From a virus (lineage: Duplodnaviria > Caudoviricetes), in IMG/VR virus record IMGVR_UViG_3300027963_000056, positions 29,912 through 93,911 of that record: a DNA stretch of 64,000 bases. One strand, given 5' to 3'. The position numbers and the translations under genes are program-made. Below the pieces are notes generated by a model that saw nothing but the letters and a program-made list of their open reading frames with translations, did not search any database and had not been told where the DNA came from. Shown here piece by piece: positions 44,680 through 64,000 of the stretch (the stretch's first letter is position 1; every line of letters starts with the position of its first letter).

Positions 44680-44686
44680 CCCGCAC

Positions 44687-44715: not shown

Positions 44716-44721
44716 AACAAC

Positions 44722-46068: not shown

Positions 46069-46089
46069 ATATGTTTTTAGGAGATAGCG

Positions 46090-47138: not shown

Positions 47139-47152
47139 GAAAGCAGATACAG

Positions 47153-48076: not shown

Positions 48077-49172
48077 ACCAGCCATAGATCCCAACAATAA
48101 AATCACATTCTTATTAGATTGGGAACTCACAATGAAGTGCAATCTAGATTGCACATATTGTACAACAGGTATCTATGGCGGCCACGATAATACACAACGG
48201 CATCCCCCTGTGGCAGAATGTTTGCGTACTATTGACTTTATGTTTGAATATGCTGACATCTACATGGCCACCAAACCCCAGGGCATTCGCTATGTGATAC
48301 TTAATGTGTATGGCGGCGAAGCATTACACCACCCTAATATTGTAGAAATATTGAGTGTATTACGTGAGAGATATCAACCATACCAAGATCGCTGGCACCT
48401 GACTGTGACCACAACCACCAATGCTATTATTGCACCGCATCGCCTGGACCGCATCATTCCCTTTATTGATGAATTTACTGTGAGTTATCATAGTGAAAAT
48501 ACCGCGGAACAAAAGCAACAGTTTTGCGATAATTTATTAAGAATCAAGGAAGCCGGGCGTAGTCAAAAATGTGTGGTACTCATGCACTCTGAACCAGACC
48601 ACTTTGCAGATGCACAAGAAATGATTGCATGGTTGAACAAAAACAGTATCAAGAACCTACCAAGACAACTGGATCATTTTTCTCCATTTACTTTTAATTA
48701 CAATCGGCAACAAGTGGTTTGGTTTGAAGGTTTGTACAAAAAAACTTTGGATCATGCTGTAATGCGTGGTGATAACAAGGCCGATCTGGCGGACACTGGA
48801 AGAGCCTGTTGTGGCGGTCGGGAATTGTGCGCAGATCAAAATTATAGGACTAGGCAAAAGTTTGTAGCAAACAAATTCCCTGGTTGGTATTGCAGTGTAA
48901 ATCATTTCTTTTTGTATGTAAAACAAGTTAATGGCGAAGTTTACGTCAATAAAGATTGTAAAATGAACTACGACGGTACCGTGGGACCAATTGGCAATCT
49001 AAACAACACAGCACCAATTTTGTTGCAGGCACGTGACTCTGACAAACCGATTATCCGATGTGCCAAGGAACGATGCTATTGCGGACTTTGTGCGCCCAAG
49101 GCAGCCGACCTAGATACATACAAATCCATTATGAGGAAATATGAGATACCTAATCCTGACATACCTCACTAA
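48054..49172 (+). CDS. Radical SAM enzyme with C-terminal SPASM-like Cys cluster
   Basis: CNLDCTYC, GGEAL, TTN, VSYH; WYC...DC...C...C.CG.C; TTG start. Confidence 0.88.
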   Translation: MNSLISLEPAIDPNNKITFLLDWELTMKCNLDCTYCTTGIYGGHDNTQRHPPVAECLRTIDFMFEYADIYMATKPQGIRYVILNVYGGEALHHPNIVEILSVLRERYQPYQDRWHLTVTTTTNAIIAPHRLDRIIPFIDEFTVSYHSENTAEQKQQFCDNLLRIKEAGRSQKCVVLMHSEPDHFADAQEMIAWLNKNSIKNLPRQLDHFSPFTFNYNRQQVVWFEGLYKKTLDHAVMRGDNKADLADTGRACCGGRELCADQNYRTRQKFVANKFPGWYCSVNHFFLYVKQVNGEVYVNKDCKMNYDGTVGPIGNLNNTAPILLQARDSDKPIIRCAKERCYCGLCAPKAADLDTYKSIMRKYEIPNPDIPH

Positions 49173-49452
49173 ACCTAGTGGCCAAATTGACGAAGTCATG
49201 ACAGTGGCCCGAAGCCTAAAAGCCCGTGATCATCAAACGGCAAATGTAATACTTGACTTTAAAACCTTAACTGTGTTAAAATGTAGTATGAGCGGTGTAA
49301 CAGTTCCTAGAGACTTTGACCGCATTGTGGAATACTACCACCAACACTACGAATCAACCATCTCAAGGTTGTTTCAAGAAAATGGATATGAAATTGTCAA
49401 ATCTGATCAAACTACCGACACGAAACAACCTGCAGAAAACAATCCTAGTTGA
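49141..49452 (+). CDS. Hypothetical phage protein
   Basis: MRYL..TY..KP.GQIDE...NVILDF. Confidence 0.75.
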   Translation: MRYLILTYLTKPSGQIDEVMTVARSLKARDHQTANVILDFKTLTVLKCSMSGVTVPRDFDRIVEYYHQHYESTISRLFQENGYEIVKSDQTTDTKQPAENNPS

Positions 49453-50008
49453 TGCAGATGGTGTGTTATTAGACTGGGAGTATGCATTCTCGGTCTGGAT
49501 GGACGAACACGGACATGAAAAACAAGCCGGCTCGGAATTCATATATGACATTGGAGATCGATATGGCATCTCTAAAGAACAAGGTCGTAAATTAATTAAA
49601 ATTTTCAACGAATCAGCCGCAATTGGTTTCTTGCCACCCTTACGTGATGCCATGTATTATGTCAAACGACTGCATGAAGAACACGGATATGTGTTCCATT
49701 GTATTACCAGCCTGAGTCTAGACGTCAACGCCGGCCGATTGCGTGAAATGAATCTGCGCAAGTTATTTGGCAAGACAGCATTTGAACGAATTGTGTGCTT
49801 GGCAACCGGTGCGGACAAAAATGACGCACTGGAACCCTATCGTGGATCCAATCTCTACTGGGTCGAGGATAAAATTGAAAATGCTGACCTTGGGCACAGC
49901 ATGGGATTGCACAGCATATTAATGGAACACGGGCACAACATGAATCATGAGTGCCCGTATCCGGTCGTCAAAAATTGGCGGGAAATCTACGAAATTATCA
50001 CCTCCTAA
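49388..50008 (+). CDS. HAD-family 5'(3')-deoxyribonucleotidase-like protein
   Basis: ILVDADGVLLDW, ITS, WVEDK..N. Confidence 0.85.
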   Translation: MKLSNLIKLPTRNNLQKTILVDADGVLLDWEYAFSVWMDEHGHEKQAGSEFIYDIGDRYGISKEQGRKLIKIFNESAAIGFLPPLRDAMYYVKRLHEEHGYVFHCITSLSLDVNAGRLREMNLRKLFGKTAFERIVCLATGADKNDALEPYRGSNLYWVEDKIENADLGHSMGLHSILMEHGHNMNHECPYPVVKNWREIYEIITS

Positions 50009-50739
50009 ACTGCGTAGAGTTTCAACACTGACCCAATGATCTTGTGGCGTTGAACGTCACGAGACTCCAATGTGCAAACAGCAATACCCTGTGTGGGCAT
50101 TGACTGCAAGCGTTCACAAAGATCCAGCAGGCCGTTGTCTCCGCTATGTCGGTCGGCCTGCTCCACATCTCCTGTGATCACTATCTTTGAATTCGTCCCT
50201 ATTCGAGTCATCAACATCTTGACCTGTGCCGGGGTTGCATTTTGCATTTCATCGGCAATAATCCATGAGTTTTTAAAGGTACGGCCACGCATGAAAGCCA
50301 GAGGCGAAATCTCCACTACCTGATCTTCTATAAGGGCTACAATGTCCTGGGCACGATAATATTCGCGCATGACATCTAATAAGGGACGAGTCCACGGTTC
50401 CATTTTGGCAACCAAATTGCCCGGGAGGAAACCATGACTTTCTCCCTCCACACCCACTGCTGGGCGTGTCATTACGATCCTGTCACACTCACCTTCTTTT
50501 AGTGCCTTAACGGCCGCCTGCATGGCTAGATAAGTTTTGCCCGTACCTGCGGGACCTACTGTAACTACTATGTGGGCGTCAGGGTCTTGTAGAGCCATGA
50601 CCAAGCGTTCTTGATTTCGTGTGCGAGGGATCAAGTCTATGCGGCGTTGGGCCGTTCTAGGTGCTGGGTTAAAGCTAATGGTGTTTTCTACTGCCTGATT
50701 CATTCTTTTTTGTGCTTTCGCTGATCGCTGTCTACTCAA
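50005..50739 (-). CDS. phoH: PhoH-family ATPase
   Basis: GPAGTGKT, TRPAV, GFLPG, PLAFMRGRTF, DEMQN, TGD..QAD. Confidence 0.96.
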   Translation of the reverse strand: MSRQRSAKAQKRMNQAVENTISFNPAPRTAQRRIDLIPRTRNQERLVMALQDPDAHIVVTVGPAGTGKTYLAMQAAVKALKEGECDRIVMTRPAVGVEGESHGFLPGNLVAKMEPWTRPLLDVMREYYRAQDIVALIEDQVVEISPLAFMRGRTFKNSWIIADEMQNATPAQVKMLMTRIGTNSKIVITGDVEQADRHSGDNGLLDLCERLQSMPTQGIAVCTLESRDVQRHKIIGSVLKLYAV

Positions 50740-50914
50740 GTTCTATTCTCCTGGTAAAAGTCCTTTCGGACCAACCTATTTACGGTGTGTGTGAAACTGA
50801 TAACCTGGTGTTATTTTCTATAGATATGGTCACTAAATACTGACCAGGCGCGGGCAGTTCAGGGATATTGTCAAGATTGAGTTTTGGAATAAATATCCAG
50901 AGAGACTCAAAATC

Positions 50915-53900
50915 ATGCCCACAAATAACAATATCAACTATGCTCCAACCGCAGTAGACACTGGCGCTGCCGCACCTGTCCCAATTGGACCACTTGACAC
51001 AGGCCCTGCGGCTGTTGATCCGGGTCCTGGATTGGGGGTAACCCCAACCACTAGAGCGCCTGTTATTCCACAAGTGGAACAACCGGTACAAACACAGTTG
51101 ACTCCAGAAGGAGCCAATGGTCCAAATGTTGGTGGGACCAATCAACAACGATATATCACTATCCTTTTTGATGGCACAGTTGTTACAAATAATGCTACAT
51201 CTTTGAATTTTACAGGAAACGGAGTTTCTGTTTCTAATTTGGGAACTACTGGTGCTAATATTGTGATCACTGCAGGTGGTGGCGGAAACGGCAACTATAG
51301 CAATAGCAATGTCAGTGCCTTTTTGGCTGCATTTGGAAGCAATACAGTAAGCACCACAGGCAATGTAACTGCTGGATATGTGTTTGGTAATGGCTCACAA
51401 CTGACAGGTATTGTGGCAACTTCTAGTTATGCCAATGCCAATGTTGTGGCTAACCTGGCTGCTTTGGGCACGAATCCAGTGTCAACAACAGGTAATGTCA
51501 CAGCAAGTTACTTGTTTGGTAATGGTTCACAACTGAGTGGTATTACTGCAAATTACAGCAACTCAAATGTCAGTGCGTTTTTGGCTGCTTTTGGCAGCAA
51601 CGCAGTAAGTACCACAGGAACTGTGACTGCAGGCAACATCACCGGTGGTAATATGTTAACTGGTGGATTAATATCAGCAACTGGTACTGTAACTGGCTCT
51701 AGTCATTTGGGCGCGGTTGTATCAGTCACTGCCAACATAACCGGTGGTAATATTGTGACAGCAGGCTTGATCACAGCCACAGGTAATGTAGCAGGCAATT
51801 ATTTTATTGGTAACGGCTCCCAACTAACAGGTATTACTGGAACGTATGGCAACTCAAATGTGGTGGCTAATCTGGCTGCCTTGGGTTCAAACCCAGTATC
51901 AACAACAGGAACAGTGACGGCGGGCAATATCACAGGTGGTAATGTGTTAACAGGTGGATTGGTCAGTGCAACTGGCAATATCGCCGGCAACGTGTTTATT
52001 GGTAACGGATCACAACTGACCGGTATCACTGGAACATACGGTAATGCCAATGTGGTTGCTAACTTGGCTGCCTTGGGCAGTAATCCAGTATCGACTACAG
52101 GTAATGTAAACAGTGGTAACCTATTGACGGGTGGTTTGATAAGTGCTACTGGTACTGTGACTGGTTCAAGTTTGTTAGGTTCAGTAGTATCTGTCACTGC
52201 CAACATCACAGGTGGTAATATCCTAACTGCTGGTGTTGTATCGGCTACAGGCAATGTGTCTGGTAATTTCTTTATTGGTAACGGATCACAACTGACAGGT
52301 ATTGCGGCTTCATATGGCAACGCCAATGTGACCACATTGTTGAGTACTTTGGGCAGTAACATTATTAGTGGAACTGGCAATATCACAACAACTGCCAACA
52401 TCTCGGGCGGTTATATCCTGGGTAATGGTTCACAGTTGACTGGATTACCAGCAAATTATGGCAATGCTAACGTGGTAGCCAACCTGGCTGCCCTGGGTAC
52501 TAACCCGGTCAGTACAACAGGTAACATAACAGGTGGCAATCTATTAACAGGTGGACTGATAAGTGCTACATCAACCATTACTTCAGCGGCAAATATCACA
52601 GGTGGTAATGTACTAACTAGTGGCTTGATAAGTGCTACATCAACAATCACCAGTGCGGCAAATATCACAGGTGGCAACATCTTGACAGGCGGACTAATCA
52701 GTTCAACTGGTACTATTACTGGCACAAGTCACTTGGGTTCAGTTGTATCTGTTACTGCCAACATCACTGGTGGTAATGTCCTAACAGGTGGTGTAGTATC
52801 AGCAACTGCTAACGTCACTGGTGGTAATATCATCACCGCAGGCGTGATCACAGCCACTGGCAATATTGCTGGTAATGTGTTTATTGGTAACGGCTCACAA
52901 CTGACAGGTATTACCGGAACGTATGGTAACTCAAATGTGGTGGCCAACCTGGCTGCTTTGGGCTCAAATCCAGTTAGCACCACTGGCAATGTCAACGGTG
53001 GTAATTTGCTTACAGGTGGCCTAATAAGTTCAACTGGTACTGTGACTGGCTCAAGTTTGTTAGGTTCAGTGGTGTCAGTAACTGCCAACATCACAGGTGG
53101 AAATGTCCTGACTGCTGGTTTGGTTTCCGCGACATCAACTATAACTTCAGCGGCAAATATCACAGGTGGTAACATATTGACTGCCGGTTTGATATCAGCA
53201 ACTTCAACAATCACCAGTGCTGCCAACATAACCGGTGGTAATGTACTAACAGGTGGGTTTGTTAGTGCCACAAGCACAATCACATCAGCCGCAAATATCA
53301 CTGGTGGTAACATATTGACAGGTGGATTAATCAGTTCAACTGGTACTATTACTGGCTCTAGTCATTTGGGTGCAGTGGTAAGTGTGACGGCCAACGTTAC
53401 AGGTGGTAATGTACTAACTGCTGGACTAATCAGCGCAACAAGTACAATTACCAGTGCTGCCAACATTACAGGTGGTAATGTTTTATTTGGATCAGGTATT
53501 GTTTCTGGTACTGGTAATATCTATGGCGGAAATATTATTGGTACACTAGCACCTACAACTTTAGTTGCAAGTGGTAATATCACTGGCGGTAACTTGCTGA
53601 CAGGTGGCTTGATCAGTGCTACTGCCAATATCACAGGTGGCAATGTCATAACTGGCGGATTGATTTCAGCAACATCAACCATTACCTCAGCAGCCAACAT
53701 CACAGGTGGTAACATCTTAACTGCTGGATTGATCAGTGCTACTGCCAATATCACAGGTGGTAATTTGTTGACTGCTGGTCTTATTAGTGCAACTTCAACA
53801 ATCACAAGTGCGGCAAATGTAACCGGTGGCAATGTATTGACTGCTGGTGTGATATCAGCAACATCAACTATCACAAGTGCCGCAAACGTGGTAGGTGGTA

Positions 53901-54664
53901 ACATAACCACCGCAGGCTTGATTACTGCTACTGCCAACATCACAGGTGGTAATTTGTTAACAGGTGGATTGGTATCGGCCACTGCTAACATAACTGGTGG
54001 TAACATCGCCACAGCAGGTTTGATCACAGCAACAGGTAACATTACCTCTGTGGCCAACATTGCCGGTGGTAACATCTTGACTGCTGGCATAATGAGTTCA
54101 ACAGGTAATGCCACACACGGCAACATACTAACTGCTGGATTGATAAGTGCTACTGCCAACATAACTGGTGGCAATTTAATTGGTATCCACGCCAATGGAA
54201 CCAGTAACATCAGTATTCCTACTATCAGTGCAAACATACTGTTTAGCACTGCCGGCAATGCCAACGTGTTGGTCATAGCCAACACAGGTATTGTGGCCAA
54301 CGTGCTGGCACCCACCACAGCAACTCCAGCCAACGGTGTGGGTTACATAGGTATGCCAGTGAGTACCATAACTGGTACAGGTACACTGACCATTGTGGAT
54401 GCTGGTAAACTGGTTTACATCACAGGCGCCAGCCAGACTGTGACTATCCCTGCCAACGGTTCAGTGGCGTTCCCAATTGGAACTGCCATAACATTCATTG
54501 CTGGTCCTGCTTCAAGTGCCACCAGCATTGCTATCACAACAGATACCATGTATCTGGCAGGCACAGGCACAACAGGCACAAGAACAATGGCTGCCAACGC
54601 CATGGCCACTGCGGTCAAAGTGGCCAGTACCACCTGGTACATCAACGGAACAGGACTGACATAA
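50915..54664 (+). CDS. Long repetitive fibre protein
   Basis: 1249 aa of ANITGGN.LT.GLISAT and GNGSQLTG...YGN.NV repeats; C-terminal VTIP.N..VAFPIGT.I...W.I.G domain. Confidence 0.88.
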   Translation: MPTNNNINYAPTAVDTGAAAPVPIGPLDTGPAAVDPGPGLGVTPTTRAPVIPQVEQPVQTQLTPEGANGPNVGGTNQQRYITILFDGTVVTNNATSLNFTGNGVSVSNLGTTGANIVITAGGGGNGNYSNSNVSAFLAAFGSNTVSTTGNVTAGYVFGNGSQLTGIVATSSYANANVVANLAALGTNPVSTTGNVTASYLFGNGSQLSGITANYSNSNVSAFLAAFGSNAVSTTGTVTAGNITGGNMLTGGLISATGTVTGSSHLGAVVSVTANITGGNIVTAGLITATGNVAGNYFIGNGSQLTGITGTYGNSNVVANLAALGSNPVSTTGTVTAGNITGGNVLTGGLVSATGNIAGNVFIGNGSQLTGITGTYGNANVVANLAALGSNPVSTTGNVNSGNLLTGGLISATGTVTGSSLLGSVVSVTANITGGNILTAGVVSATGNVSGNFFIGNGSQLTGIAASYGNANVTTLLSTLGSNIISGTGNITTTANISGGYILGNGSQLTGLPANYGNANVVANLAALGTNPVSTTGNITGGNLLTGGLISATSTITSAANITGGNVLTSGLISATSTITSAANITGGNILTGGLISSTGTITGTSHLGSVVSVTANITGGNVLTGGVVSATANVTGGNIITAGVITATGNIAGNVFIGNGSQLTGITGTYGNSNVVANLAALGSNPVSTTGNVNGGNLLTGGLISSTGTVTGSSLLGSVVSVTANITGGNVLTAGLVSATSTITSAANITGGNILTAGLISATSTITSAANITGGNVLTGGFVSATSTITSAANITGGNILTGGLISSTGTITGSSHLGAVVSVTANVTGGNVLTAGLISATSTITSAANITGGNVLFGSGIVSGTGNIYGGNIIGTLAPTTLVASGNITGGNLLTGGLISATANITGGNVITGGLISATSTITSAANITGGNILTAGLISATANITGGNLLTAGLISATSTITSAANVTGGNVLTAGVISATSTITSAANVVGGNITTAGLITATANITGGNLLTGGLVSATANITGGNIATAGLITATGNITSVANIAGGNILTAGIMSSTGNATHGNILTAGLISATANITGGNLIGIHANGTSNISIPTISANILFSTAGNANVLVIANTGIVANVLAPTTATPANGVGYIGMPVSTITGTGTLTIVDAGKLVYITGASQTVTIPANGSVAFPIGTAITFIAGPASSATSIAITTDTMYLAGTGTTGTRTMAANAMATAVKVASTTWYINGTGLT

Positions 54665-56013
54665 TGAGTGGAATAATGGGCGGACTGCTGAGCAGTTACA
54701 GTATCCAGACACCAGCCACGCTGGTAATGAATTTGGACGCCACAGTTGGTGCCATGCCTGGTTCCAACATAACAACCAGTGCCAGTTTTGACGGTTCAAC
54801 ACAACGTCTAAGCACCACTGGTTTACTGGCCACTGGCGCTGCCGAAGGCACAAACATGGGCACTGGTAACTTTACCTGGGAATGTTGGGTACGACCCACT
54901 GCCAGCATAGGCTACCAAGCATTTATAGACACTCGTGGGCAAGAAACAGGATATTCAGCAGTGGAAACAGATGGTGCTTTTTTTGGGCTCAACAACAATA
55001 CTCTTTTTCCTATATATTATTCATCAGGGGCACTAATCACATCTTCAATTGCAGTGACGCTGAATACGTGGACGCACGTGGCTGTGGTCAGAAATTCAGG
55101 CACAACCACATTGTATGTGGGCGGAGTCAGTGGCGGCACTTATGCAGACAGTTTGGATTTGTCAGCACCTTATGTTAATATAGGTGGCACGGCCATTGGT
55201 GGTCTTTGGCTGACAGGACAAATATCCAATTTGCGCATGGTTAAAGGCACAGCAGTCTATACAGCAGGCTTTGTTCCACCAACAAGTACACTAAGAGCCA
55301 TTGCTGGCACACAGTTGTTGTTGCCACTTGCTGCCACAGTGTTTACAGACATGTCCTCAAACTTGCTTGCAATAACAAATACTGGAACAGTGATAACAAC
55401 AGCACAAGCACCAACACTTGCCGCGGCCACCACTGACTTTACAGGAACCTACGCTATTACCACAACCAATGCAGGCGCTACTATTACCTACAACAGTGCC
55501 AATGGTGGCGTGTTTAGAAAAAGCACTAGTTCGGGTGCAGATGTCATGATACTTGGTCCAAATTATGTTACTGGACAGAGTTACAGTGTATTCATGGCCT
55601 ACAAAATATCTGCAACATCGGCTGGTAGATTGTTGAACACTAACAGTGAAGCAACTAAAGATTGGTTGTTGGGAGCCTACAATGGTAATCCCAACGCATT
55701 CTATCCCAACTTCTCAGTGAACTTGCCTAGTACAGGTGCGGACACTGTGTGGCATTTTGCATGGGGCACATTCAATACTGGCACAAGTCTGGGACAACTG
55801 TACACCGCAACCAGTGCTCAGCCAACCGGTACATCATTTGCTGTGACCAATGCCGGCGGAGGTGGGTTTAACCAGCTAAGATTGTTTAGTCGTTCGGCCG
55901 GCTCTGAAGTGCAAACTGCTGACATAGGAATGATCAGAGTGTACAATGGTGTGGTGACTTTGGCGCAAGTTCAGTCACAGTACGCGGCCTTCAAGGCAAG
56001 ATTTGGATACTAA
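54664..56013 (+). CDS. LamG/concanavalin-A-like lectin domain virion protein
   Basis: NFTWECWV, WTHVAVVR...LYVGG, GQISNLR; second jelly-roll ending RVYN...Y...K.RFG. Confidence 0.85.
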   Translation: MSGIMGGLLSSYSIQTPATLVMNLDATVGAMPGSNITTSASFDGSTQRLSTTGLLATGAAEGTNMGTGNFTWECWVRPTASIGYQAFIDTRGQETGYSAVETDGAFFGLNNNTLFPIYYSSGALITSSIAVTLNTWTHVAVVRNSGTTTLYVGGVSGGTYADSLDLSAPYVNIGGTAIGGLWLTGQISNLRMVKGTAVYTAGFVPPTSTLRAIAGTQLLLPLAATVFTDMSSNLLAITNTGTVITTAQAPTLAAATTDFTGTYAITTTNAGATITYNSANGGVFRKSTSSGADVMILGPNYVTGQSYSVFMAYKISATSAGRLLNTNSEATKDWLLGAYNGNPNAFYPNFSVNLPSTGADTVWHFAWGTFNTGTSLGQLYTATSAQPTGTSFAVTNAGGGGFNQLRLFSRSAGSEVQTADIGMIRVYNGVVTLAQVQSQYAAFKARFGY

Positions 56014-56038
56014 TAGCAGTATCCATAAATAAACTATC

Positions 56039-56653
56039 ATGCAAACACACAACCGACATGGCGTCCGCGATCGCGATCTATTTAAAGATCACACCGACTA
56101 CTGGCAAGTAGCCGACAACATTCGCGACATCTACATGAGCGAGGGCAGTTTGACTACCCTGCTGGACTTTGAGCGTGTGCTGGACGAAGTAGATATCTAC
56201 GCATTCAAGAACTGGGAAATTGGGGAACTTGTGGACGGTCCCGAAATTGGCAAGTACCGTGTGACTTGTACGTTTATGTGGCCTTTGCGAATGATGCCCG
56301 ATCCCCGTGGTGGACGCAGATTATTAGCATTTGACTGCGAAGTTGAATATCAGCGCAAAGAAATAAAGATTCCCATTAAGATCACAGATCCGTCGGATTA
56401 TCGTCCGGGCACCAAAAAGGCCAAATTGGTCACTAAAGACGTGTGGCTGGTCACAATCACCATGCCCAAGGCCTTGATGAATGACATCCGCACAGGATCA
56501 ATCGAAATGGAAGATCAGGACATTGATCTAGATGAATTAGATCAGGCCTACGAAAACGATTTGGACAAAGAGGAAAATCAAAGCGATGAACAAGCCAAAG
56601 CCGCTCAACAATCCCTTCAACAGCAGCCAGCCGCTACCGGCCCTGCTGTCTGA
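56039..56653 (+). CDS. Late phage protein
   Basis: LLDFERVLDE.D.YAF.NW..GELV.GP, MPDP.GG.RL; TAAATA upstream. Confidence 0.8.
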   Translation: MQTHNRHGVRDRDLFKDHTDYWQVADNIRDIYMSEGSLTTLLDFERVLDEVDIYAFKNWEIGELVDGPEIGKYRVTCTFMWPLRMMPDPRGGRRLLAFDCEVEYQRKEIKIPIKITDPSDYRPGTKKAKLVTKDVWLVTITMPKALMNDIRTGSIEMEDQDIDLDELDQAYENDLDKEENQSDEQAKAAQQSLQQQPAATGPAV

Positions 56654-57176
56654 GGGTCTGCAATATAAAGACCTAGAGGGCATGATGAAGCCCACTATTC
56701 ACGTGGACGAATTTGCGGCCAAAATGGGTGATGACGATGATATCATTGTGCTGAGTTTCTTTGTGCGTGATTTGTCGGCTGCCAAAGATCTAGTGGGTTG
56801 GTTCGAAAAGGGCTATGATTTTGTGTTGGACGCTGATCGTTCACCTGGTGAAATCAAACCCAGCCGTTATCTAGTGTATCTTGAACTGCGTCGACGTCGT
56901 AGTGCCGCACAGCATGTGCAAACGCTACTGGATGATTTGTCAACACTTACAGAATTTGCCCCAGAAGAATGGCGCATGAAATACAATGGTCGAGATCACG
57001 AATGGTCTGAAAAGACCTTTGCTGAACTGGTTCCATTAACTCCCGATGCCTACAGAGCCACACACGAAGATGATCTGAATGAAGTGCGCACAGCGGCAGG
57101 CATTACACCCAAACGGATTCACGAAAAATTGCCCGATGATGTCAAATCATTGCAATCAATGGCGGGGATACGATAA
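56586..57176 (+). CDS. Late phage protein
   Basis: LLSE leader, DEF..KMG.D.D..VLSF, EKGY.FVLDAD.S.GE; ends AAGI/MAGI. Confidence 0.8.
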   Translation: MNKPKPLNNPFNSSQPLPALLSEGLQYKDLEGMMKPTIHVDEFAAKMGDDDDIIVLSFFVRDLSAAKDLVGWFEKGYDFVLDADRSPGEIKPSRYLVYLELRRRRSAAQHVQTLLDDLSTLTEFAPEEWRMKYNGRDHEWSEKTFAELVPLTPDAYRATHEDDLNEVRTAAGITPKRIHEKLPDDVKSLQSMAGIR

Positions 57177-59029
57177 TGAAGATAAATGACATACTGGTAG
57201 AATTTGCACCCTCAGGTGGCGGTGGTTCAGGCAACTACTTTCAAGCACTAGCAAGTGCTTGGTACAATGGTACCTTTGACACAGGCAGTCTGCAAAAAGG
57301 CATCAAGAGTCAACAAGATGTTGAACGTTTACTGAATCGTGGCATTGTGTGTCCCGATGGCAAAACACGCAAACTGCATATTGATTACAACGCAGACTTT
57401 GACGGTGTGGAAATCTACAGTGATGACTATTACGAATACGGTGATCACGATGACACCATAGACAGTCGCACAGGCCAAAAATGGGGACCATATGATTTTA
57501 TGGCCTTTTCAGATGAGGATCTGAGTGAAGGCCTTAATGAATTTGCAGCCGATGGTGATTCAGGACGCTGGTACACAGATGATCAAATGACCGACCTAGT
57601 GGGTGATGGCTGGTGGCAAGACATGGACATCAGCGGTGCAAACATTGGCGTGCCTGATTCAGAAGTACCAAAAGCGTACATGATCCAACAGGCACAACGC
57701 TGGTTAAAACGTCAAGGTCATAATGTACAAGTTCTCAATGTTCGAGTAAATGACGATGACGTTGAATGGTATATTGAAGGCGCATTTCCTAAAGATCTAA
57801 CGGAATTTGCAGCCGATGATGGTGACAGCGGCGAAGACGATGTGCTACGCAAATACGCTCAAATGTGGTGGAACGGTGATGATGCAACACAACAGCAAAT
57901 TGAACGTGCTCTTGCAAAAATGGGCTGGGAAATTGGCGAGGACGAAGGCGGCTACGACAACGGTGGTGTGTTTGTGGTACGTGCTGGTGACGAACATGGT
58001 CGTAGTTATACATCCTGGGCCGCAGAAGATTTAGTGGAAGGTGTGGCGGAAGGCTGGAGAGAAGAATCGCAAGATTTAGAAGATTGGGCAAAAGAAGTTA
58101 ATAAAAAATTATATAAAGCCCATGCAAGTCAAAGACCTGCTCTAGCACAACAACTAAGTCAATTGGAACATAAACATTTTGGTAGTCCCGCTAACCCATT
58201 AACTAGAATAGTTAAATCAGCATTAACAGCATTACGTAATGGACAAATGCCACACTATGATTCAGATAAAGTAGGTGCAATGCCTTTTGGATCTTTAGTA
58301 GGAGACGATGCAAAAGAAATAGCCGCCGCCAACTTACACGCCAGCGAGAATCAAGGATATAGCATACTAAAAAGAAATCGTATAGTTGATACTGTTGATG
58401 ACTTTCTTCGACTAGTAGATGTTGTACAGACATTACCGCCGGAGTATCTATTCAAGTATAAAGATGCAGGTGGCCAAGCCTGGTTTGAAATTGTTAAAGA
58501 CATTGGATGGTCAAAGGATGATGCTCCTGGACAAAGATACAGAGTATCTCAGGGCGTAGCGGAGGGTGACTTGAATGAAAAGTCAACAAGCCAAGCACAG
58601 TTCCGCACAATGGCAGCGGCTGCACATGATCCCAAATTTGCAAAAAAGGTTGGTATTAAACCATCAGTGGCACGAGAGTTTAATCGGGCCGATAAGGGTC
58701 AAGATTATAAGTCATTGCCCAAAAAAGCCACTGAAGGTGCTCCTGTCACAACCACGCCCGGGTCCGTTGAACCAGGTGGCGCAGTTGACAACTTCAAACA
58801 GCAAATGGCCAACAATACTGAAAAACAAGCAGGGGTAGCAGAAGCCATTCCATTGAAAACACTCAGATCTCAGGGCCGTGATGAAAAGGAAGCTGACTAC
58901 GGTGATGATTACCAACAAATGGTTTTGCGTTTGAAAAAATTGGCCGGTGCTGGTCCATTAAAGACACAATACGATCCCAACAAGCGTGTGTATCGAAACA
59001 TGCCCACAGCGGTGCAACCAAAAAAATGA
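57176..59029 (+). CDS. Modular putative internal-head polyprotein
   Basis: Leader MKINDILVE; segments joined by L.EFA(A/P) x3 and GVAE x3. Confidence 0.75.
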   Translation: MKINDILVEFAPSGGGGSGNYFQALASAWYNGTFDTGSLQKGIKSQQDVERLLNRGIVCPDGKTRKLHIDYNADFDGVEIYSDDYYEYGDHDDTIDSRTGQKWGPYDFMAFSDEDLSEGLNEFAADGDSGRWYTDDQMTDLVGDGWWQDMDISGANIGVPDSEVPKAYMIQQAQRWLKRQGHNVQVLNVRVNDDDVEWYIEGAFPKDLTEFAADDGDSGEDDVLRKYAQMWWNGDDATQQQIERALAKMGWEIGEDEGGYDNGGVFVVRAGDEHGRSYTSWAAEDLVEGVAEGWREESQDLEDWAKEVNKKLYKAHASQRPALAQQLSQLEHKHFGSPANPLTRIVKSALTALRNGQMPHYDSDKVGAMPFGSLVGDDAKEIAAANLHASENQGYSILKRNRIVDTVDDFLRLVDVVQTLPPEYLFKYKDAGGQAWFEIVKDIGWSKDDAPGQRYRVSQGVAEGDLNEKSTSQAQFRTMAAAAHDPKFAKKVGIKPSVAREFNRADKGQDYKSLPKKATEGAPVTTTPGSVEPGGAVDNFKQQMANNTEKQAGVAEAIPLKTLRSQGRDEKEADYGDDYQQMVLRLKKLAGAGPLKTQYDPNKRVYRNMPTAVQPKK

Positions 59030-59193
59030 CAAGACGCACAGCCACCGGTCGCCCTGTTCCTGTGCTTCAAGGCTCAGCAGGACCGGTAGCACCCAACCCA
59101 CAAATACCACCGCCCATGCCCCCACAGCAGGCCGTCACACGCCTGCCACAGCCAGTTATATCAATGGGCCTGGGCCTGAAACTAAACCCATGA
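59026..59193 (+). CDS. Small Pro-rich protein (55 aa, not in ORF track)
   Basis: MTRRTATGRPVPVLQGSAGPVAPNPQIPPPMPP...; ATGA overlap at both ends. Confidence 0.55.
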   Translation: MTRRTATGRPVPVLQGSAGPVAPNPQIPPPMPPQQAVTRLPQPVISMGLGLKLNP

Positions 59194-59393
59194 GAGCCCA
59201 AGAATTCGTCACTGAAAAAAAGCGAATGAAGCGGCTGAAAGAACTCACATTCATGGGCATGAGTCCTTGTACCAAAGACTGCTCAGGACACCGTGCTGGT
59301 TATAAATGGTCAAAAGCACGTGGTGGTGTCAGCACAGCGTCATGGTCAAACAGTTTCAACAAGGGTGCAGAAATAGCCAAGGCTGGCTATTAA
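59190..59393 (+). CDS. Small basic protein with CTKDCSGH motif
   Basis: Leader MRAQEFVTE; CTKDCSGHRAGYKW...SNSF.KG. Confidence 0.75.
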   Translation: MRAQEFVTEKKRMKRLKELTFMGMSPCTKDCSGHRAGYKWSKARGGVSTASWSNSFNKGAEIAKAGY

Positions 59394-59423
59394 CTGTTAA
59401 AGAGTTCACCTGCTAAATACAGG

Positions 59424-59867
59424 ATGTGGATTTTACATTTTCTTCCTGACGCCTTTATCTTATGGTTTTGTAACCTACTACTCCTAGCAGGCGTGGCAGC
59501 CACTGTGGCCGGCTGGATTGCGCATCGAGTCGCTGTATTGTGGCCCTATCAACTGGCGTTCAAATTGGCCGGTATTGCACTGCTAGTGCTGGGTGTTTAC
59601 TTTCGCGGCGGGCTTGCTGTAGAACAAGAATGGCGTGAGCGTGTGGCAGCAGTAGAAGCAAAACTAGCCCTGTCTGAAAAGGCCAGTGCTGAAGCCAATC
59701 AAGCAATTGAACAAAAGACACAAAAACAAATAGCCGCAGTACGTCAGCGTACAACATACATCCGACAATATGTAGACCGTGAAGTTGTTAAATACGATGC
59801 TGGTTGCGCAATTCCTGAACCATTCGTTCGAGCGCACAACACGGCCGCAGAGGCACCCAAGAAATGA
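59424..59867 (+). CDS. Putative inner-membrane spanin (Rz-like)
   Basis: N-terminal TM segments, coiled coil, C-terminal C.IP; TAAATA upstream. Confidence 0.7.
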   Translation: MWILHFLPDAFILWFCNLLLLAGVAATVAGWIAHRVAVLWPYQLAFKLAGIALLVLGVYFRGGLAVEQEWRERVAAVEAKLALSEKASAEANQAIEQKTQKQIAAVRQRTTYIRQYVDREVVKYDAGCAIPEPFVRAHNTAAEAPKK

Positions 59868-60907
59868 AAATAACAGATATATTGTCAGAAGCCAGTGACG
59901 ACTCAGGTGACTACCAACAGATGCTGGCATTTACCCGTGCCAACAGAGTGGGCGGCGTTCCTGATTCACAACAAATTCCCTTGGCCCTGTTTAAAGAACT
60001 AAAGAAGCAACAACAACAAAATCAAGCACTGGGTGCTGAACTAGACGCGGCTGAACAGCGAATTGATCAAGCCATGAAGTCAGATGAACTCAGCAAACAA
60101 GAACTGGGCATGCATCGCACGGAACTGGACCGTGAGCGTGCGGCAGGCGACGAACAAAAGGCCACTGTGTCACAACTGGGACAACAGTATGCTGAACGTG
60201 AACAGGCCAGCACAGAACAAATCAAGCAATTGACCGGACAATTACAACAGGTGCGCAACATGCCTGGTGTGAACAAAAAGGCCGCTGAGGAATTAGAAAA
60301 GCAAATAAAAGAACTGGGCGAAAAGAGTGTGCCAGTGGCAAGACTAGCAGAACTAGAATCTACTATTGCTCAAATACAAACCTCAAGCATTGCAGATGAC
60401 AGCACAATAAAAGACCTTGTGCAACAAGTAAAAAATGCGCAGGCTGCCAGTGACACCCGTGTGGACATGGTCACGCAGATGCGTCAAGATATTGAACGAC
60501 TGAAACAAGTTGAAACAGATCTTGAACAAGAACTCAATGATCTCAAAGACAGTTATCAAGAAACTGATGCCACATTGTGGGACATAGAATCACAGACCAT
60601 TCCCGGTATAACACAAGATATTGACCAACTCAAAACTGCTGGGGCAGTCAAAAACATACCAACTCCAGCGCCAGTGGGACAACAGGTGCAGACACCTGAA
60701 CCCCCACCACAACAGGCTCCTGCATCCGAGCCTGCGCCTGCCGCAACACCAAACGTCACACAAGAACCAGCAAATCAACCAGCCTGGAAAATAGACAAAG
60801 AGGCTATTTTCCAGAAAATGAAAGATGCAGGGCATTTTCAAGATCAGAAAGTGGCCGAGGATCAAATGAATCGTGCCATTGCATGGGCAACAGGAAAGCA
60901 ACTATGA
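59864..60907 (+). CDS. Coiled-coil protein, putative internal head protein
   Basis: Leader MKITDILSE; long heptads, Pro-rich linker, KVAE near the C-terminus. Confidence 0.75.
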   Translation: MKITDILSEASDDSGDYQQMLAFTRANRVGGVPDSQQIPLALFKELKKQQQQNQALGAELDAAEQRIDQAMKSDELSKQELGMHRTELDRERAAGDEQKATVSQLGQQYAEREQASTEQIKQLTGQLQQVRNMPGVNKKAAEELEKQIKELGEKSVPVARLAELESTIAQIQTSSIADDSTIKDLVQQVKNAQAASDTRVDMVTQMRQDIERLKQVETDLEQELNDLKDSYQETDATLWDIESQTIPGITQDIDQLKTAGAVKNIPTPAPVGQQVQTPEPPPQQAPASEPAPAATPNVTQEPANQPAWKIDKEAIFQKMKDAGHFQDQKVAEDQMNRAIAWATGKQL

Positions 60908-61638
60908 AAGCAAATGAATTTATAACTGAAAAGTGGAGTCAAAAGTACAAGAGCAGTATCAACTGCTCGCACCCTCGAGGCTTCAGCCAGCGAGCACATT
61001 GTGCCGGCAAGAAAAAACACAACGAATCAGTTGAAATGGAAATGGTGTGTGAAGATTGTGGCATGTGTGAAACCCATGGCAACGTTATGGAGATTCGGAA
61101 GGGCCAGAAAGACTCAAACGGATATACACGTTGCTGGCCCGGCAAACATGCTGAAGGTACAAAGAAAGGCAAGAATGGCGGACCGGTGCGCAACTGTGTG
61201 CCCAATGAAAGTGCAGAACTAAACGAAGAATTTGATCTCATTGAGAGTATCATCGAAACAATTGCTGAACATAATGGCGTAGATGCCGAAGTCTTATGGG
61301 AAGACCTAGAAACATTGACTGAAGATGAACTGTATGTGTTTGCTGTGACATCCCAACCCATCATGGAGTCAGAAGCCTGGCAAAAGGCCAATAAAAAGGA
61401 CAAGACAGATGGCATGAGTCAAAAGGCTGTGAACTCTTATCGTCGTGAACATCCTGGATCTAAACTAAAGACTGCTGTGACTACCAAACCCTCAAAATTA
61501 AAGAAGGGCTCCAAAGCCTCCAAGCGCCGTAAGAGTTATTGCTCACGCAGTCGTGGTCAAATGAAGATGCACAGCATCAGTTGCGCCAAGACGCCGGACA
61601 AGGCCATTTGCAAAGCACGACGTCGTTGGAACTGCTAA
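60904..61638 (+). CDS. Modular basic Cys/His-rich protein
   Basis: Leader MKANEFITE; INC..P.GFSQ.AHC, CWPG...NCVP, PGSKLKTAVT...RRKSYCSR...RRRWNC. Confidence 0.8.
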   Translation: MKANEFITEKWSQKYKSSINCSHPRGFSQRAHCAGKKKHNESVEMEMVCEDCGMCETHGNVMEIRKGQKDSNGYTRCWPGKHAEGTKKGKNGGPVRNCVPNESAELNEEFDLIESIIETIAEHNGVDAEVLWEDLETLTEDELYVFAVTSQPIMESEAWQKANKKDKTDGMSQKAVNSYRREHPGSKLKTAVTTKPSKLKKGSKASKRRKSYCSRSRGQMKMHSISCAKTPDKAICKARRRWNC

Positions 61639-61639
61639 A

Positions 61640-61906
61640 ATGAAATACGCTGTAATACTTGCTTTGTTGTTGTCAGGATGCTCAACAGTAGTACCTGTTG
61701 TGGCACGGTTTCCTGAGCCTCCCAGTAAGGGCGCAACAACTGCATGTCCTGCTCTACAGAAACTAAAAGACGATGCAAAGTTAAGCGACGTTACTACCAC
61801 TGTGACAGTGAACTACGGTACCTACTATGAGTGTGCTGTCAAAGCAGATGCCTGGCAGGAATGGTATGCAATACAAAAAATTATACATGAAAAGGCTGGA
61901 AAATAA
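61640..61906 (+). CDS. Putative outer-membrane spanin lipoprotein (Rz1-like)
   Basis: Lipobox LLSGC, FPEPP, C..L, NY..YYEC. Confidence 0.75.
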   Translation: MKYAVILALLLSGCSTVVPVVARFPEPPSKGATTACPALQKLKDDAKLSDVTTTVTVNYGTYYECAVKADAWQEWYAIQKIIHEKAGK

Positions 61907-62523
61907 TGAGCACAATCTTGACACTAGACCAATTAAAACAAATGGTCAAGAATCCGCATATTGATCACTGGTATGCTGTACTAGAACAATTGCTGGATGA
62001 TTATGATATCAACACTCCATTAAGAGTTGCACATTTCATAGCACAATGCGCTCACGAGTCAGGAAATTTTGTTTTCATCCGAGAAAATCTCAACTACAAG
62101 GCCGCAAGCCTACAAAAGATTTTCGGCAAGTATTTTGCCACAGCAGAATTGGCAGCGCAGTATGCCAACAAGCCCGAACAGATTGCCAACAGAATCTATG
62201 CATCAAGAATGGGCAACGGTCCCGAAGCGTCAGGTGATGGTTATAGATACTGTGGACGCGGACTTATACAACTAACGGGCCGAGACAACTACACATTCTT
62301 TGCAGGAAGTCTAGGTATCACAGTGGAAGAAGCGAGTGAATACTTGGCAACATTTGAAGGCGCCGCACAGAGTGCCTGTTGGTTCTGGGAACAAAACAAT
62401 TTAAATCGTTTTGCTGATGCAAATGATGTCAAAGGACTCACACGTGCCATCAATGGTGGCTATATTGGTCTGGATGATCGCATCAGCCACACAGAACATG
62501 CATTACACGTACTGGGTGGATAA
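61906..62523 (+). CDS. GH19 family endolysin
   Basis: FIAQCAHESG, ENLNY, RMGNG, GDGYRY.GRGLIQLTG..NY, INGG..GL.DR. Confidence 0.93.
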   Translation: MSTILTLDQLKQMVKNPHIDHWYAVLEQLLDDYDINTPLRVAHFIAQCAHESGNFVFIRENLNYKAASLQKIFGKYFATAELAAQYANKPEQIANRIYASRMGNGPEASGDGYRYCGRGLIQLTGRDNYTFFAGSLGITVEEASEYLATFEGAAQSACWFWEQNNLNRFADANDVKGLTRAINGGYIGLDDRISHTEHALHVLGG

Positions 62524-62526
62524 ACC

Positions 62527-63237
62527 ATGCCAACAATAGGTCCAGGAATCACCATTGGTCCAGGAATCACAATAAGCAGTCTCAGTGTGGTCACCACAGG
62601 GTTACAAGTGTATATTGACGCTGGACAGACCGCCAGTTACCCCGGCTCAGGCACTGCCTGGACTGATTTGAGTGGTAATGGCAACAACGGAACATTGGTC
62701 AATAGTCCCACATTTACATCTGCCGGAGATGCAAGTTATTTTAGTTTTGGAAGTGCTGGATCACAAAGAACCAGTTTTACCTATCAAACGCCGGTGCAGA
62801 CAGCGGCCACTGCATTTACCTGGAACATCTGGACCTATCCAACAGCAAATCAAGACGGTTATGTTCTCATGGGCTATAGAGGAACCACACCACTCCAGTT
62901 TTACAAATTGACCACTCAAAAATTTGAAATGTATCCTGCAGAAATATTCCAATTGTTCACGCTCAACGTCTGGCAGAATATATGTGTGATTTACGATGGA
63001 ACACAGGCCGGCACAGCCAACATGAAGATGTATGTGAATGGCACACAAGTGGGCTTGAGAGACGCTGACCAACCAGATTTATCACCCAGTGCCATGCCAT
63101 TTTATGTGGGCGGAGACCCTATTGCCAGTGAATTTGCCACAGCAAGAATTTCACAAGTGTTGGTGTACAATCGTGCGTTATCCACCATCGAAATCGCACA
63201 AAATTATAATGCGGTAAAAAGCAGATATGGATTGTAA
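62527..63237 (+). CDS. LamG/concanavalin-A-like virion protein
   Basis: GL..YIDAG...SYPGSG..W.DLSGNGN.GTL, W.NI...YDG, YNRALS..EI.QNY. Confidence 0.88.
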   Translation: MPTIGPGITIGPGITISSLSVVTTGLQVYIDAGQTASYPGSGTAWTDLSGNGNNGTLVNSPTFTSAGDASYFSFGSAGSQRTSFTYQTPVQTAATAFTWNIWTYPTANQDGYVLMGYRGTTPLQFYKLTTQKFEMYPAEIFQLFTLNVWQNICVIYDGTQAGTANMKMYVNGTQVGLRDADQPDLSPSAMPFYVGGDPIASEFATARISQVLVYNRALSTIEIAQNYNAVKSRYGL

Positions 63238-63259
63238 TAAATATTAAAAAGGGGCAGAC

Positions 63260-63769
63260 ATGGCAGAAGAACAAAAACCGATATCAGAGTCAGAAAAGAA
63301 AAAAGAAGACTGGATGAACTCCAAGTGGAGACCGGCCATGGGTTGGATGTACATGTTGACATGTATGACTGACTTTATTTTATTTCCTATCTTGTGGAGT
63401 TTGTTACAAACAGTCACAAAACAACCAATCACACAATGGCAACCTCTCACACTTCAAGGCGCTGGACTATTCCACATTGCCATGGGTGCTGTGTTGGGTA
63501 TTGCGGCCATGGGTCGCACACAAGAAAAACTAGCAGGAGCAAACAATGGCGGAGCAGGCACAACCACACCATCAAGCGGCAGTTCAGCATTTGGCTTACC
63601 TACAGCAAACCCAGCGCCAGTCACCAACAGTTTTGGCTCACAACCCCTGGGCGGCACACCAACAGCAGGCTTTGGTAGCAGTACAGGATTTGGAGCGCCA
63701 GCGGCTGAAGTCACCACAGGATTTGGGGGCAAGCCCGCACCGGTAATCCCACCATTCCCAGAACGATAA
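63260..63769 (+). CDS. Holin-like protein (GTA 3TM holin family)
   Basis: WMNSKWRPAMGW, WQPLTL.G.GLFH.AMGAVLG...GRT.EK. Confidence 0.75.
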   Translation: MAEEQKPISESEKKKEDWMNSKWRPAMGWMYMLTCMTDFILFPILWSLLQTVTKQPITQWQPLTLQGAGLFHIAMGAVLGIAAMGRTQEKLAGANNGGAGTTTPSSGSSAFGLPTANPAPVTNSFGSQPLGGTPTAGFGSSTGFGAPAAEVTTGFGGKPAPVIPPFPER

Positions 63770-63785
63770 CAACAAGGAGAAAACT

Positions 63786-64000
63786 ATGGCAACTAAGAAA
63801 CCAGAAATGAACGAGAATCTCACTTCAGCAGTGAGTGAAGTACTAGAGGGTCAAATCACCGGCAAGAAATGGTACTACAGCAAAACATTTTGGGCCAACA
63901 TCATAGCAGGTGTGGCCGTGATAGCACAGGCCAGTTATGGCTTTGTGTTGCCTGTGGAATATCAAATGGTAGCACTGAGTTTGGTAAACATGGGTCTGCG
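63786..64000 (+). CDS. Small membrane protein, holin-like, 3'-truncated
   Basis: AAGGAG RBS; hand translation ...KKWYYSKTFWANIIAGVAVIAQ... Confidence 0.65.
   Translation, partial: MATKKPEMNENLTSAVSEVLEGQITGKKWYYSKTFWANIIAGVAVIAQASYGFVLPVEYQMVALSLVNMGL

Follow-up and report, generated by a model that had tools for sequence, protein, structure and literature searches.

In phage T4, the head maturation protease gp21 cleaves after glutamate at L/I-X-E, and the N-terminal 10 residues of the internal protein IPIII are enough to have it packaged; processing depends on residues 8 and 10 and is blocked when position 10 is Asp (PMC9026906). As described in PMC3012670, PMC9026906 and PMC12373910, the internal proteins of T4 carry variable, unrelated bodies behind a shared leader, an arrangement that is also found at the locus reported here. 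Cleavage after glutamate at a three-residue motif is likewise described for many head proteins, including ejection and inner-body proteins, of the giant phages phiKZ, 201phi2-1 and SPN3US (gp175/gp245 protease; PMC9026906, PMC10052503). Polyvalent proteins (Iyer et al. 2017, PMC5512222) are reported there to combine many domains with extreme mosaicism, to be encoded among virion genes and to be predicted to enter the host with the DNA, all points of likeness to the present gene. In T4-type phages, PeSL (promoter and stem-loop) cassettes are described in which short conserved DNA motifs flank variable units and serve as recombination joints (PMC2839356). Here, an open reading frame (ORF) of 617 codons at 57176-59029 (+) is examined in a window of 64,000 nt from a virus of the Caudoviricetes (IMG/VR record IMGVR_UViG_3300027963_000056, positions 29,912 to 93,911; all positions below are those of the window). 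The source phage is an uncultured giant freshwater relative of phage T4, and the ORF probably encodes a polyprotein that is packaged in a T4-type head and cut there, that is, a head-cargo polyprotein, a reading to which a probability of roughly 60% is assigned.

According to this reading, a nine-residue leader, like the T4 capsid-targeting sequence, would carry the chain into the prohead core, where a maturation protease of the gp21 family (S77) would cut after glutamate at residues 9, 118/122, 210, 288/292, 463/468 and 556, and probably also at 520. Seven pieces would be released: the acidic, folded modules A, B and C, the neutral helical module D, the basic modules E and G, and the disordered module F. 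The basic pieces would probably remain with the DNA, as the T4 internal proteins do, some pieces may enter the host, and the joint DNA would probably act as recombination micro-homology. Because relatives gain, lose and reorder modules at the same joints, one tag could load a variable set of small proteins. A first-pass annotation of the window, made from its letters, had proposed unrelated modules joined by linkers that double as protease sites and micro-homologies, and this interpretation is partly supported. At the level of sequence, the modular build, the placement of the motif, its depletion from module interiors, the sharing of leaders and the turnover of modules at the joints in relatives and in lake populations are all established.

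Organization of the polyprotein

The 617-residue translation reads leader-A-B-C-D-E-F-G, the order given in the first-pass annotation, and every joint ends in hydrophobic-x-Glu except at ATE-520. In order, the joints are MKINDILVE|FAPS, DLSEGLNE|FAADG, DLTE|FAADD, DLVEGVAE|GWRE, QGVAE|GDLNE|KSTS...AAAAH, KKATE|GAPV and AGVAE|AIPL, which places candidate cuts after residues 9, 122, 210, 292, 463, 468, 520 and 556. Four modules (A, B, C and F) have acidic pI values of 4.05-4.6, and only E and G are basic (pI ~10). Module D is AT-richer than its neighbours, as had been remarked from the sequence, with a GC content of 0.398 and a third-position GC content (GC3) of 0.228, against 0.45-0.53 and 0.35-0.42 in the other modules. 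This moderate dip is real but not extreme, because 5.7% of 1270 windows of the same length across the 64 kb match or exceed it.

In a full-length AlphaFold2 (AF2) model (62-row alignment, mean predicted local distance difference test (pLDDT) 68.7, predicted template modelling score (pTM) 0.30), pLDDT falls below 50 at residues 1-17, 119-127, 207-217, 290-295, 365-374, 459-472, 509-576, 591-598 and 612-617, and every joint lies inside one of these stretches. Domains A-E are folded in the model, with A, B and C mixed alpha/beta and D and E helical, and F is disordered; the block-mean pLDDT of module A is 75-92 over residues 21-120, and module D modelled alone reaches 73.8. With every joint in a low-confidence stretch and a pTM of 0.30, the expectation that the modules would form independent domains is borne out as far as modelling allows.

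Joints as candidate head-protease sites

Ten [LIVMF]xE sites occur in the protein, ending at residues 9, 118, 122, 210, 255, 288, 292, 463, 468 and 556, and 9 of these 10 are at joints, the sole interior one being IGE255. Composition-preserving shuffles of the interiors gave a mean of 5.3 sites against the one observed (P = 0.015). A similar depletion was seen across the family, counted on representatives below 0.8 similarity: the interiors of module A have 8 sites where 18.4 are expected (so few in 1 of 300 shuffles), those of C 11 where 24.6 are expected (0 of 300) and those of D none where 6.6 are expected (0 of 300), with the counts for B (2 observed, 4.5 expected) and E (0 observed, 0.6 expected) being uninformative. 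Observed sites thus amount to 0-0.45 of expectation in module interiors, whereas a set of 71 further ORFs from this genome gives a ratio of 1.06.

The motif also stands directly before module starts throughout the family. In distinct upstream contexts, [LIVMF]xE precedes module A in 125 of 132, C in 71 of 94, D in 28 of 29 and E in all 56; many of the misses listed for C are the same motif shifted by 1-2 residues by the projection of the start. Before module F it is found in 19 of 37 contexts, or in 36 of 37 when P3 may also be A, S or G, with glutamate at P1 in all 37. Over the five module types A, C, D, E and F, P1 is glutamate in 317 of 348 distinct upstream contexts, although these counts are not independent events because the sequences are related. 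Tandem sites are common at the joints (LSE-GLNE, LVE-GVAE and VAE-GDLNE). At the N terminus, MKINDILVE ends in L-V-E at residues 7-9 and so has the form of a leader of ~10 residues ending L/I-X-E.

Modules are shuffled among relatives

Relatives were collected in two ways. Of 7999 candidates scored in a word-indexed search, 863 proteins reached E <= 1e-3, the best 120 of them being the query and 119 relatives. An exhaustive phmmer search over 1.84 billion cluster representatives matched 1687 clusters at E <= 1e-3, of which 972 had E <= 1e-10 and 270 had E <= 1e-30. The phmmer matches usually cover one module, at any position, in proteins of 104-1648 aa. The seven query modules were then mapped on a set of 255 proteins (the query and 254 relatives from both searches), among which 102 module architectures were distinguished, A-B-C-D-E-F-G being found in the query only. 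Module A occurs in 203 of the 255, C in 142, G in 126, E in 112, F in 75, D in 27 and B in 18. Module G is nearly always C-terminal in its carriers, and 21 proteins have another module order, such as D...F...A or C-A. The modules thus recur in other orders and in other proteins within the same linkers, as the first-pass annotation had anticipated, and collinear homologues of fixed content are clearly not the case.

Module D illustrates this exchange. It is 96-100% identical in six relatives (P0003, P0006, P0007, P0045, P0090 and P0121), and the module that precedes it differs in each of P0003, P0006, P0007 and P0090. In 18 of the 19 other aligned D-bearing relatives it is 50-57% identical, and in the remaining one, P0056, 79%.

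The ends of homology fall close to the joints. Of 207 interior BLAST alignment ends (identity >=60%), 60% lie within 8 aa of a joint, against 18% under a uniform null (maximum 27.5% in 2000 draws), with five of the seven joint positions used in this test being one residue off. At the DNA level, alignments were obtained for 46 of 49 viral loci (L001-L049; the three protease loci L047-L049 gave none) and end at gene offsets 366, 622-630, 866-891, 1387-1400, 1554-1560 and 1648, for comparison with joints at 366, 630, 876, 1389, 1404, 1560 and 1668. In three loci (L002, L005 and L006), A is joined straight to C through a single copy of GAATT[TC]GCAGCCGATGATGG, where the window has B between two copies. 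Judged from sequence, an exchange between the repeats that inserted or removed B would be expected to leave this footprint, in either direction. An orthologous locus in the related record G004 has an 89% match in module A and the flanking genes but lacks B and D, and ~690 nt of other sequence lie between F and G.

Other units are also carried between the same joints by relatives, namely a CxxCxGxG zinc finger (replacing D), an SH3-like unit and a unit with a twin-arginine-like signal. The zinc-finger unit of P0002 and P0021 is 40 aa long, stands within GVAE joints and has precomputed Pfam assignments to DnaJ_CXXCXGXG and Anti-TRAP. In P0003, P0014 and P0029, the module right after a GLTE joint begins with the twin-arginine-like signal (VDRRGFLKGLGAAAVAGAAGG); if that joint were cut, the freed piece would bear an N-terminal export signal of the twin-arginine (Tat) type, a hint of the host periplasm.

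Repeats and codon spelling at the joints

The 64-kb window contains two copies, and no more, of the 16-nt repeat GAATTTGCAGCCGATG that the first-pass annotation had reported at two joints (57539 and 57803). Two copies arose in none of 100 shuffles, and this EFAAD core is the clear repeat of the polyprotein gene itself. Three GVAE sites were likewise confirmed, at 58040, 58553 (previously placed at about 58552) and 58832. Their common form GGNGTNGCNGAR has three matches on either strand of the window, all within the polyprotein gene, a count that is only mildly unusual because 3 of 100 shuffles also reached three.

A fixed spelling of these sites was evident across the family. In family ORFs of the collected loci, GGTGTGGCGGAA is used at 54 of 111 G[VMI]AE sites, and when each 8+8-residue context is counted once, GGTGTGGCGGAR is found at 62 of 78 GVAE sites; in the non-family ORFs of the same loci (n=546) it is found at 1 of 7. 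The joints use GCG for 79% of Ala codons (8% in the background), GTG for 87% of Val codons (22%) and GGT for 82% of Gly codons (42%). Of the three GVAE sites in the polyprotein gene, the one at 58040 alone is spelled canonically, and the others differ at three and two silent positions, so the codon lock is a property of the family that is partial in this gene. A role of the linkers as micro-homology is therefore favoured by the position of B between 16-nt repeats of which relatives have one copy, by the family-wide GVAE codon lock and by environmental breaks at linkers, and it is weakened by the lock holding at only one of the three GVAE sites here.

Breaks in lake populations

Seven freshwater metagenome runs hold 79-96% of sampled words of 56600-59400, and fourteen more hold only 17-19%. 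Four runs were compared in detail at a likeness threshold of 90%. Contigs that skip module D were found in three of them: in X8, 58033 is linked to 58576 by 32 other letters; in X9, 58050 is joined to 58559 and 58054 to 58577; and in X1, 58055 is linked to 58586 by 17 letters. Since module D spans 58052-58564, these breaks fall in its two joints. In two X8 contigs, 58055 leads back to 57558/57560 by way of a new linker of the EFAP or EFSQ type, which places a B-like module after C, and a 1305-nt X8 contig matches 58038-58609 only (6 differences) before diverging from the window. The sides of these breaks are short (29-35 nt), and all of the breaks come from relatives, not from this genome, which limits them as evidence about this genome, although breaks in relatives are what the comparison set out to detect.

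Protease and head type in related records

Among five related long records, three contain a Peptidase_S77 (PF03420) match over cut-off (E 6.5e-26 to 1.9e-23) together with a Gp23 match at ~1e-98; the two records without are 38-41% complete. One of the three, G002, has a portal gene (phrog_213) followed in turn by an acidic ORF, a gene for a head maturation protease (phrog_207; L053:4275-4919 (-)), phrog_10922 and a gene for a major head protein (phrog_138). G002 and G004 align to window positions 44000-63900 at 67-91% nucleotide identity in syntenic blocks. The head type of the phage studied here is inferred from these relatives, because its own contig is without a protease or capsid gene. The view of the linkers as candidate prohead-protease sites is well motivated by the L/I-X-E fit, the T4-like leader, the S77 protease of a syntenic relative and the depletion of module interiors.

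The acidic ORF of G002 (L053:4929-5819 (-), 297 aa) contains a QGMAE joint motif and has no PHROG match. In T4, the prohead core genes sit between the portal and protease genes.

Leaders on neighbouring genes

The 699 ORFs of the contig (94 kb) were searched for the pattern M[KR]x(1-4)[DEQ][FIL][ILVA][STVA]E, with every Met taken as a possible start. Only four matches were obtained, in four ORFs, all within 57176-60904 (+). Besides the polyprotein, these are a small ORF, a coiled-coil-like ORF and an ORF with a DUF6321 C terminus (Table 1). Two of the leaders, MKANEFITE and MRAQEFVTE, resemble MKTYQEFIAE, the leader of ipII and ipIII in the T4 record. The body that follows MKANEFITE, with its Cys-rich N-terminal part, is found again inside the relative P0106 as one of its internal modules, which argues that stand-alone tagged genes and polyprotein modules are interchangeable. 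This ORF (60883-61638) also has the highest density of [LIVMF]xE in the genome: its 251 aa contain 11 sites, where composition predicts 4.1.

Searches for known folds and functions

No Pfam family matched the 617-aa protein at E <= 0.1, and Pfam searches of seven long relatives gave a single Amidoligase_2 match and nothing else. Of the PHROGs, only phrog_16759, of unannotated function, was matched, by module E (E 3.6e-16), for which a stand-alone homologue exists in gp383 of Pseudomonas phage 201phi2-1. A tblastn search of phage records matched the E module alone, in 9 records, and megablast of window positions 50000-64000 against 50,697 phage records gave no match. ESM Atlas look-ups with modules D and A returned no usable feature match (template modelling score (TM) <= 0.5). 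The AF2 model of module D had a best Z of 5.8 against the PDB, under the noise level for helical models, and no match at E <= 0.001 among viral structures (best E 1.2). The full-length model found no PDB match at E <= 0.001, and from the viral library only the 201phi2-1 homologue of module E. The earlier proposal that the payload consists of injected effectors therefore received no support, as no module matched a family or fold of known function in Pfam, PHROGs, ESM Atlas or AF2 fold searches, and a specific effector role for any one module is considered quite doubtful.

Source contig and gene setting

The window is the terminal 64 kb of a 93,911-bp linear viral contig, which is taken as a fragment of a giant phage because its CheckV completeness is only 27%. 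An assembly chimera was considered and ruled out, since the exact 617-aa protein is recorded from 12 contigs and one freshwater run covers the entire gene in pieces with 0-2 differences each. One contig from an RNA library spans 58385-58661 (2 differences); DNA carry-over is possible, and it was not counted as expression.

The ATG of the polyprotein gene overlaps the stop of the preceding gene (ATGA), so that the two are translationally coupled, and both upstream genes belong to PHROG families annotated as virion structural protein. The gene adjoins lysis and fibre genes rather than a head module, and in 59424-63769 the leader-bearing genes are interleaved with the lysis cassette (Table 1). 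Directly 3' of the polyprotein gene, the stretch 59000-59200 is GC-rich (0.59 against ~0.46) and overlaps a 135-aa GTG-started ORF at 58986-59393, which is in frame with the small MRAQEFVTE ORF (alternative starts).

Upstream, a 1249-aa ORF at 50915-54664 consists nearly entirely of degenerate repeats of the type NITGGN-[IVL]-LT-[AG]-GL-[IV]-SAT; it has no Pfam match and not one [LIVMF]xE site, and is probably a fibre. Two ORFs further off, at 32405-33958 and 48054-49172, match PHROG radical-SAM families (E 6e-17 and 2e-8) and lie near the gene for a clamp loader (47084; phrog_168, E 4.7e-78) and a DNA-polymerase match of fragment size (45472).

Table 1. Features of the polyprotein gene and its surroundings, in window positions
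Feature	Position	Strand	Remarks
Upstream virion-protein gene 1	56039-56653	+	phrog_12928, E 2.1e-28
Upstream virion-protein gene 2	56586-57176	+	phrog_13138, E 4.5e-14; joint-like VDE|FAAK and LTE|FAPEE inside
Leader MKINDILVE (aa 1-9)	57176-57202	+	Ends L-V-E; candidate capsid-targeting propeptide; pLDDT <50 over 1-17
Module A (aa 10-122)	57203-57541	+	pI 4.3, mixed alpha/beta; ends DLSEGLNE; commonest module of the family
16-nt direct repeat, copy 1, GAATTTGCAGCCGATG	57539-57554	+	Codes E-F-A-A-D; A|B joint
Module B (aa 123-210)	57542-57805	+	pI 4.2; rare cassette between the two 16-nt repeats
16-nt direct repeat, copy 2	57803-57818	+	B|C joint
Module C (aa 211-292)	57806-58051	+	pI 4.05; ends DLVEGVAE
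GVAE joint 1	58040-58051	+	Spelled GGTGTGGCGGAA, canonical codon-locked family form
Module D (aa 293-463)	58052-58564	+	pI 6.2, all-helical, no internal [LIVMF]xE; AT-richer cassette
GVAE joint 2 and GDLNE mini-linker	58553-58579	+	GGCGTAGCGGAG, non-canonical; tandem candidate cut sites; pLDDT <50 over 459-472
Module E (aa 469-520)	58580-58735	+	pI 10.2, helical; starts KSTSQAQFRTMAAAAH; ends KKATE
Module F (aa 521-556)	58736-58843	+	Predicted disordered; ends with GVAE joint 3
GVAE joint 3	58832-58843	+	GGGGTAGCAGAA, non-canonical
Module G (aa 557-617) and stop codon	58844-59029	+	pI 9.9, conserved basic C-terminal tail
Small ORF	59190-59393	+	Leader MRAQEFVTE; no Pfam or PHROG match
347-aa coiled-coil-like ORF	59864-60907	+	Leader MKITDILSE, similar to the polyprotein leader
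ORF with leader MKANEFITE	60904-61638 (60883-61638 as 251 aa)	+	C terminus DUF6321, E 2.4e-9
Rz-like ORF	59424		PHROG spanin matches, E 1.5e-3 and weaker
Lipoprotein ORF	61640		Weak Rz1/LysC match, below cut-off
GH19-like ORF	61906		Below cut-off
Holin with three transmembrane segments (3-TM)	63260		PF11351, over cut-off
Two Laminin_G_3 (concanavalin-like) ORFs, downstream of the 1249-aa repeat ORF	54664 and 62527

Alternative explanations

Several points weigh against a packaged and cut head-cargo polyprotein. Cleavage, packaging and ejection are inferred, both for this protein and for every relative, and the 94-kb contig itself (27% complete) has no PF03420 or PF07068 match. The motif [LIVMF]xE is short, the depletion was counted on sequences that are still related, and for module B alone it lacks significance, since 42 of 300 shuffles gave no more sites than were observed. 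At joint 520 (ATE|G), P3 is Ala, which follows the phiKZ/SPN3US rule and not that of T4. Modules A-C are acidic, whereas the T4 internal proteins are small and basic; the pLDDT dip at 365-374 lies inside module D, at neither a motif nor a joint; and gp383 has no virion flag in the 201phi2-1 record, though its neighbour gp382 is flagged. T4-style late promoters are also unsupported, because the motif TATAAATA is found 3 times in the window against 1.7 expected and never near the polyprotein gene. Finally, selection for in-frame junctions could give part of the micro-homology pattern.

If the chain were targeted to the prohead and cut, its pieces could instead be scaffold or core mass that is mostly expelled before or during DNA packaging, like T4 gp22, gp67 and gp68. 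The acidity of A, B, C and F (pI 4.05-4.6) would suit such a core filler, as would the QGMAE shared with the acidic ORF between the portal and protease genes of G002; T4 core proteins are, moreover, described as being cut into several fragments by gp21, and the tandem joint sites resemble the redundant sites of phiKZ propeptides (both PMC9026906). Core proteins are conserved, however, and an accessory role with fast turnover fits better, because 102 architectures were seen among 255 proteins and a near-identical D stands in different contexts. Together with the basic character of E and G (pI ~10), which is that of DNA-associated internal proteins, and a gene placed beside lysis and fibre genes instead of in the head module, this makes the core-filler explanation improbable. 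Still less probable is an uncleaved beads-on-a-string protein, of the virion or otherwise, in which the joints are flexible, acidic, insertion-tolerant linkers and the fit to a protease motif is coincidental. Only two positions of the motif are specified, the cutting of the polyprotein is a prediction, and polyvalent proteins can be packaged unprocessed, as with the N4 virion RNA polymerase (PMC5512222); yet coincidence would have to account for 9 of 10 sites at joints with interiors at 0-0.45 of expectation (1.06 elsewhere), for P1 glutamate in 317 of 348 distinct contexts despite differing neighbours, and for an N-terminal leader that ends in the same motif and is also found on three neighbouring genes.

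A more ambitious form of the head-cargo reading is put forward tentatively. The joints would be dual-coded, serving as head-protease sites and as codon-locked recombination cores (CAA-GGT-GTG-GCG-GAA-GGC and GAA-TTT-GCA-GCC-GAT-G), and the gene would be an in-frame cassette array that trades capsid-delivered proteins, with module D a recent import. Such an array would be a protein-level analogue of the integron, used by a whole lineage of giant freshwater phages. The view of D as a recent import draws on its being AT-richer and near-identical in six relatives, four of them with a different preceding module; lake contigs of different years carry D alone or skip it. The fixed spelling could also reflect rare-codon pausing, an RNA or DNA signal or recent common descent, with other junctions purged as fold-breaking and no recombination device involved. 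The locked codons GTG and GCG are indeed rare in these genes (GTG 22% in the background but 87% at the joints, GCG 8% but 79%), the canonical form stands at only one of the three GVAE joints of the gene, and 12-16 nt is short for homologous exchange. This explanation is nevertheless rather unlikely in view of the exact 16-nt direct repeat around B, of which B-less relatives keep one copy in the same place, the use of GGTGTGGCGGAR at 62 of 78 GVAE sites when each context is counted once (non-family ORFs, 1 of 7), and DNA homology ends and environmental breaks within ~20 nt of the joints; short conserved cassettes are, in addition, described as mediating modular shuffling in T4-type phages (PMC2839356).

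Comparison with known systems

A full-text literature search, with supplementary files outside its scope, found no published description of protease-jointed cassette polyproteins, and the terms 'polyprotein', 'internal protein' and 'modular' do not occur in PMC12619734, an account of a large aquatic phage lineage that is not linked here to the present one.

Of the systems outlined above, the polyvalent proteins are described with two to fifteen domains in mosaic architectures (PMC5512222), a range within which seven modules and 102 architectures among 255 proteins fall. The domains named in that source are those of biological conflict (MPTase, ART, ParB-like and others), whereas no Pfam domain was found here. 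Processing, where proposed there, is by the protein's own metallopeptidase domain (PMC5512222), whereas the present joints carry a head-protease motif. The short modules (36-171 aa) and joints with a fixed DNA spelling are further features unlike those of polyvalent proteins.

With the phiKZ-type phages, the present protein shares redundant sites of the kind described in their long propeptides (PMC9026906, PMC10052503), and a homologue of module E is encoded by 201phi2-1. Their motif is given as S/A-X-E, whereas P3 at the joints here is L, V, M or I except at ATE-520. The protease of the relatives is of the T4 S77 type and is encoded beside a gp23-type capsid gene, unlike the phiKZ type, though a gp175-type protease was not searched for. 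The phiKZ-type substrates are not described in these sources as chains of swappable modules.

The likeness to PeSLs lies in the way they work and not in membership of the class, because the joints are not intergenic promoter/terminator elements. PeSLs as described are intergenic units of a promoter and stem-loop that move whole genes, whereas the motif here is coding, in frame, 12-16 nt long and also a candidate protease site. PeSL-type shuffling in T4-type phages has reportedly been treated by Comeau et al. in 2014 (PMC4122927). If the dual role is correct, one short sequence acting as protease site and as recombination joint would be an unusual overlap of protein and DNA codes.

To the T4 proteins IPI, IPII, IPIII and Alt, the likeness is a short N-terminal leader ending hydrophobic-x-Glu, and three of the five long related records, though not the present fragment, contain a protease of the gp21 family. 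T4 internal-protein genes adjoin the lysozyme gene (ipIII beside e), and in the window the leader-bearing genes likewise lie beside a candidate lysozyme gene. As described, the T4 proteins have one tag, one small basic body and one N-terminal cut, in contrast to the 617 aa, seven modules and internal sites found here; most of these modules are acidic, so the protein does not consist of a single small basic body. Exchange of modules inside the reading frame is a feature of the present gene, unlike the T4 internal proteins, and packaging and cutting, which are proven for T4, are predicted here from sequence. If the polyprotein is loaded and cut, one tag would deliver a whole set of small proteins that is re-dealt by recombination at the joints. 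This would explain a very large unannotated metagenomic family, of which 1687 clusters at 50% identity match one gene, and would offer a cheap and defined route to candidate anti-defence or host-takeover proteins of uncultured giant phages. The idea of the T4 internal proteins would then grow from one tag and one protein to a combinatorial cargo system.

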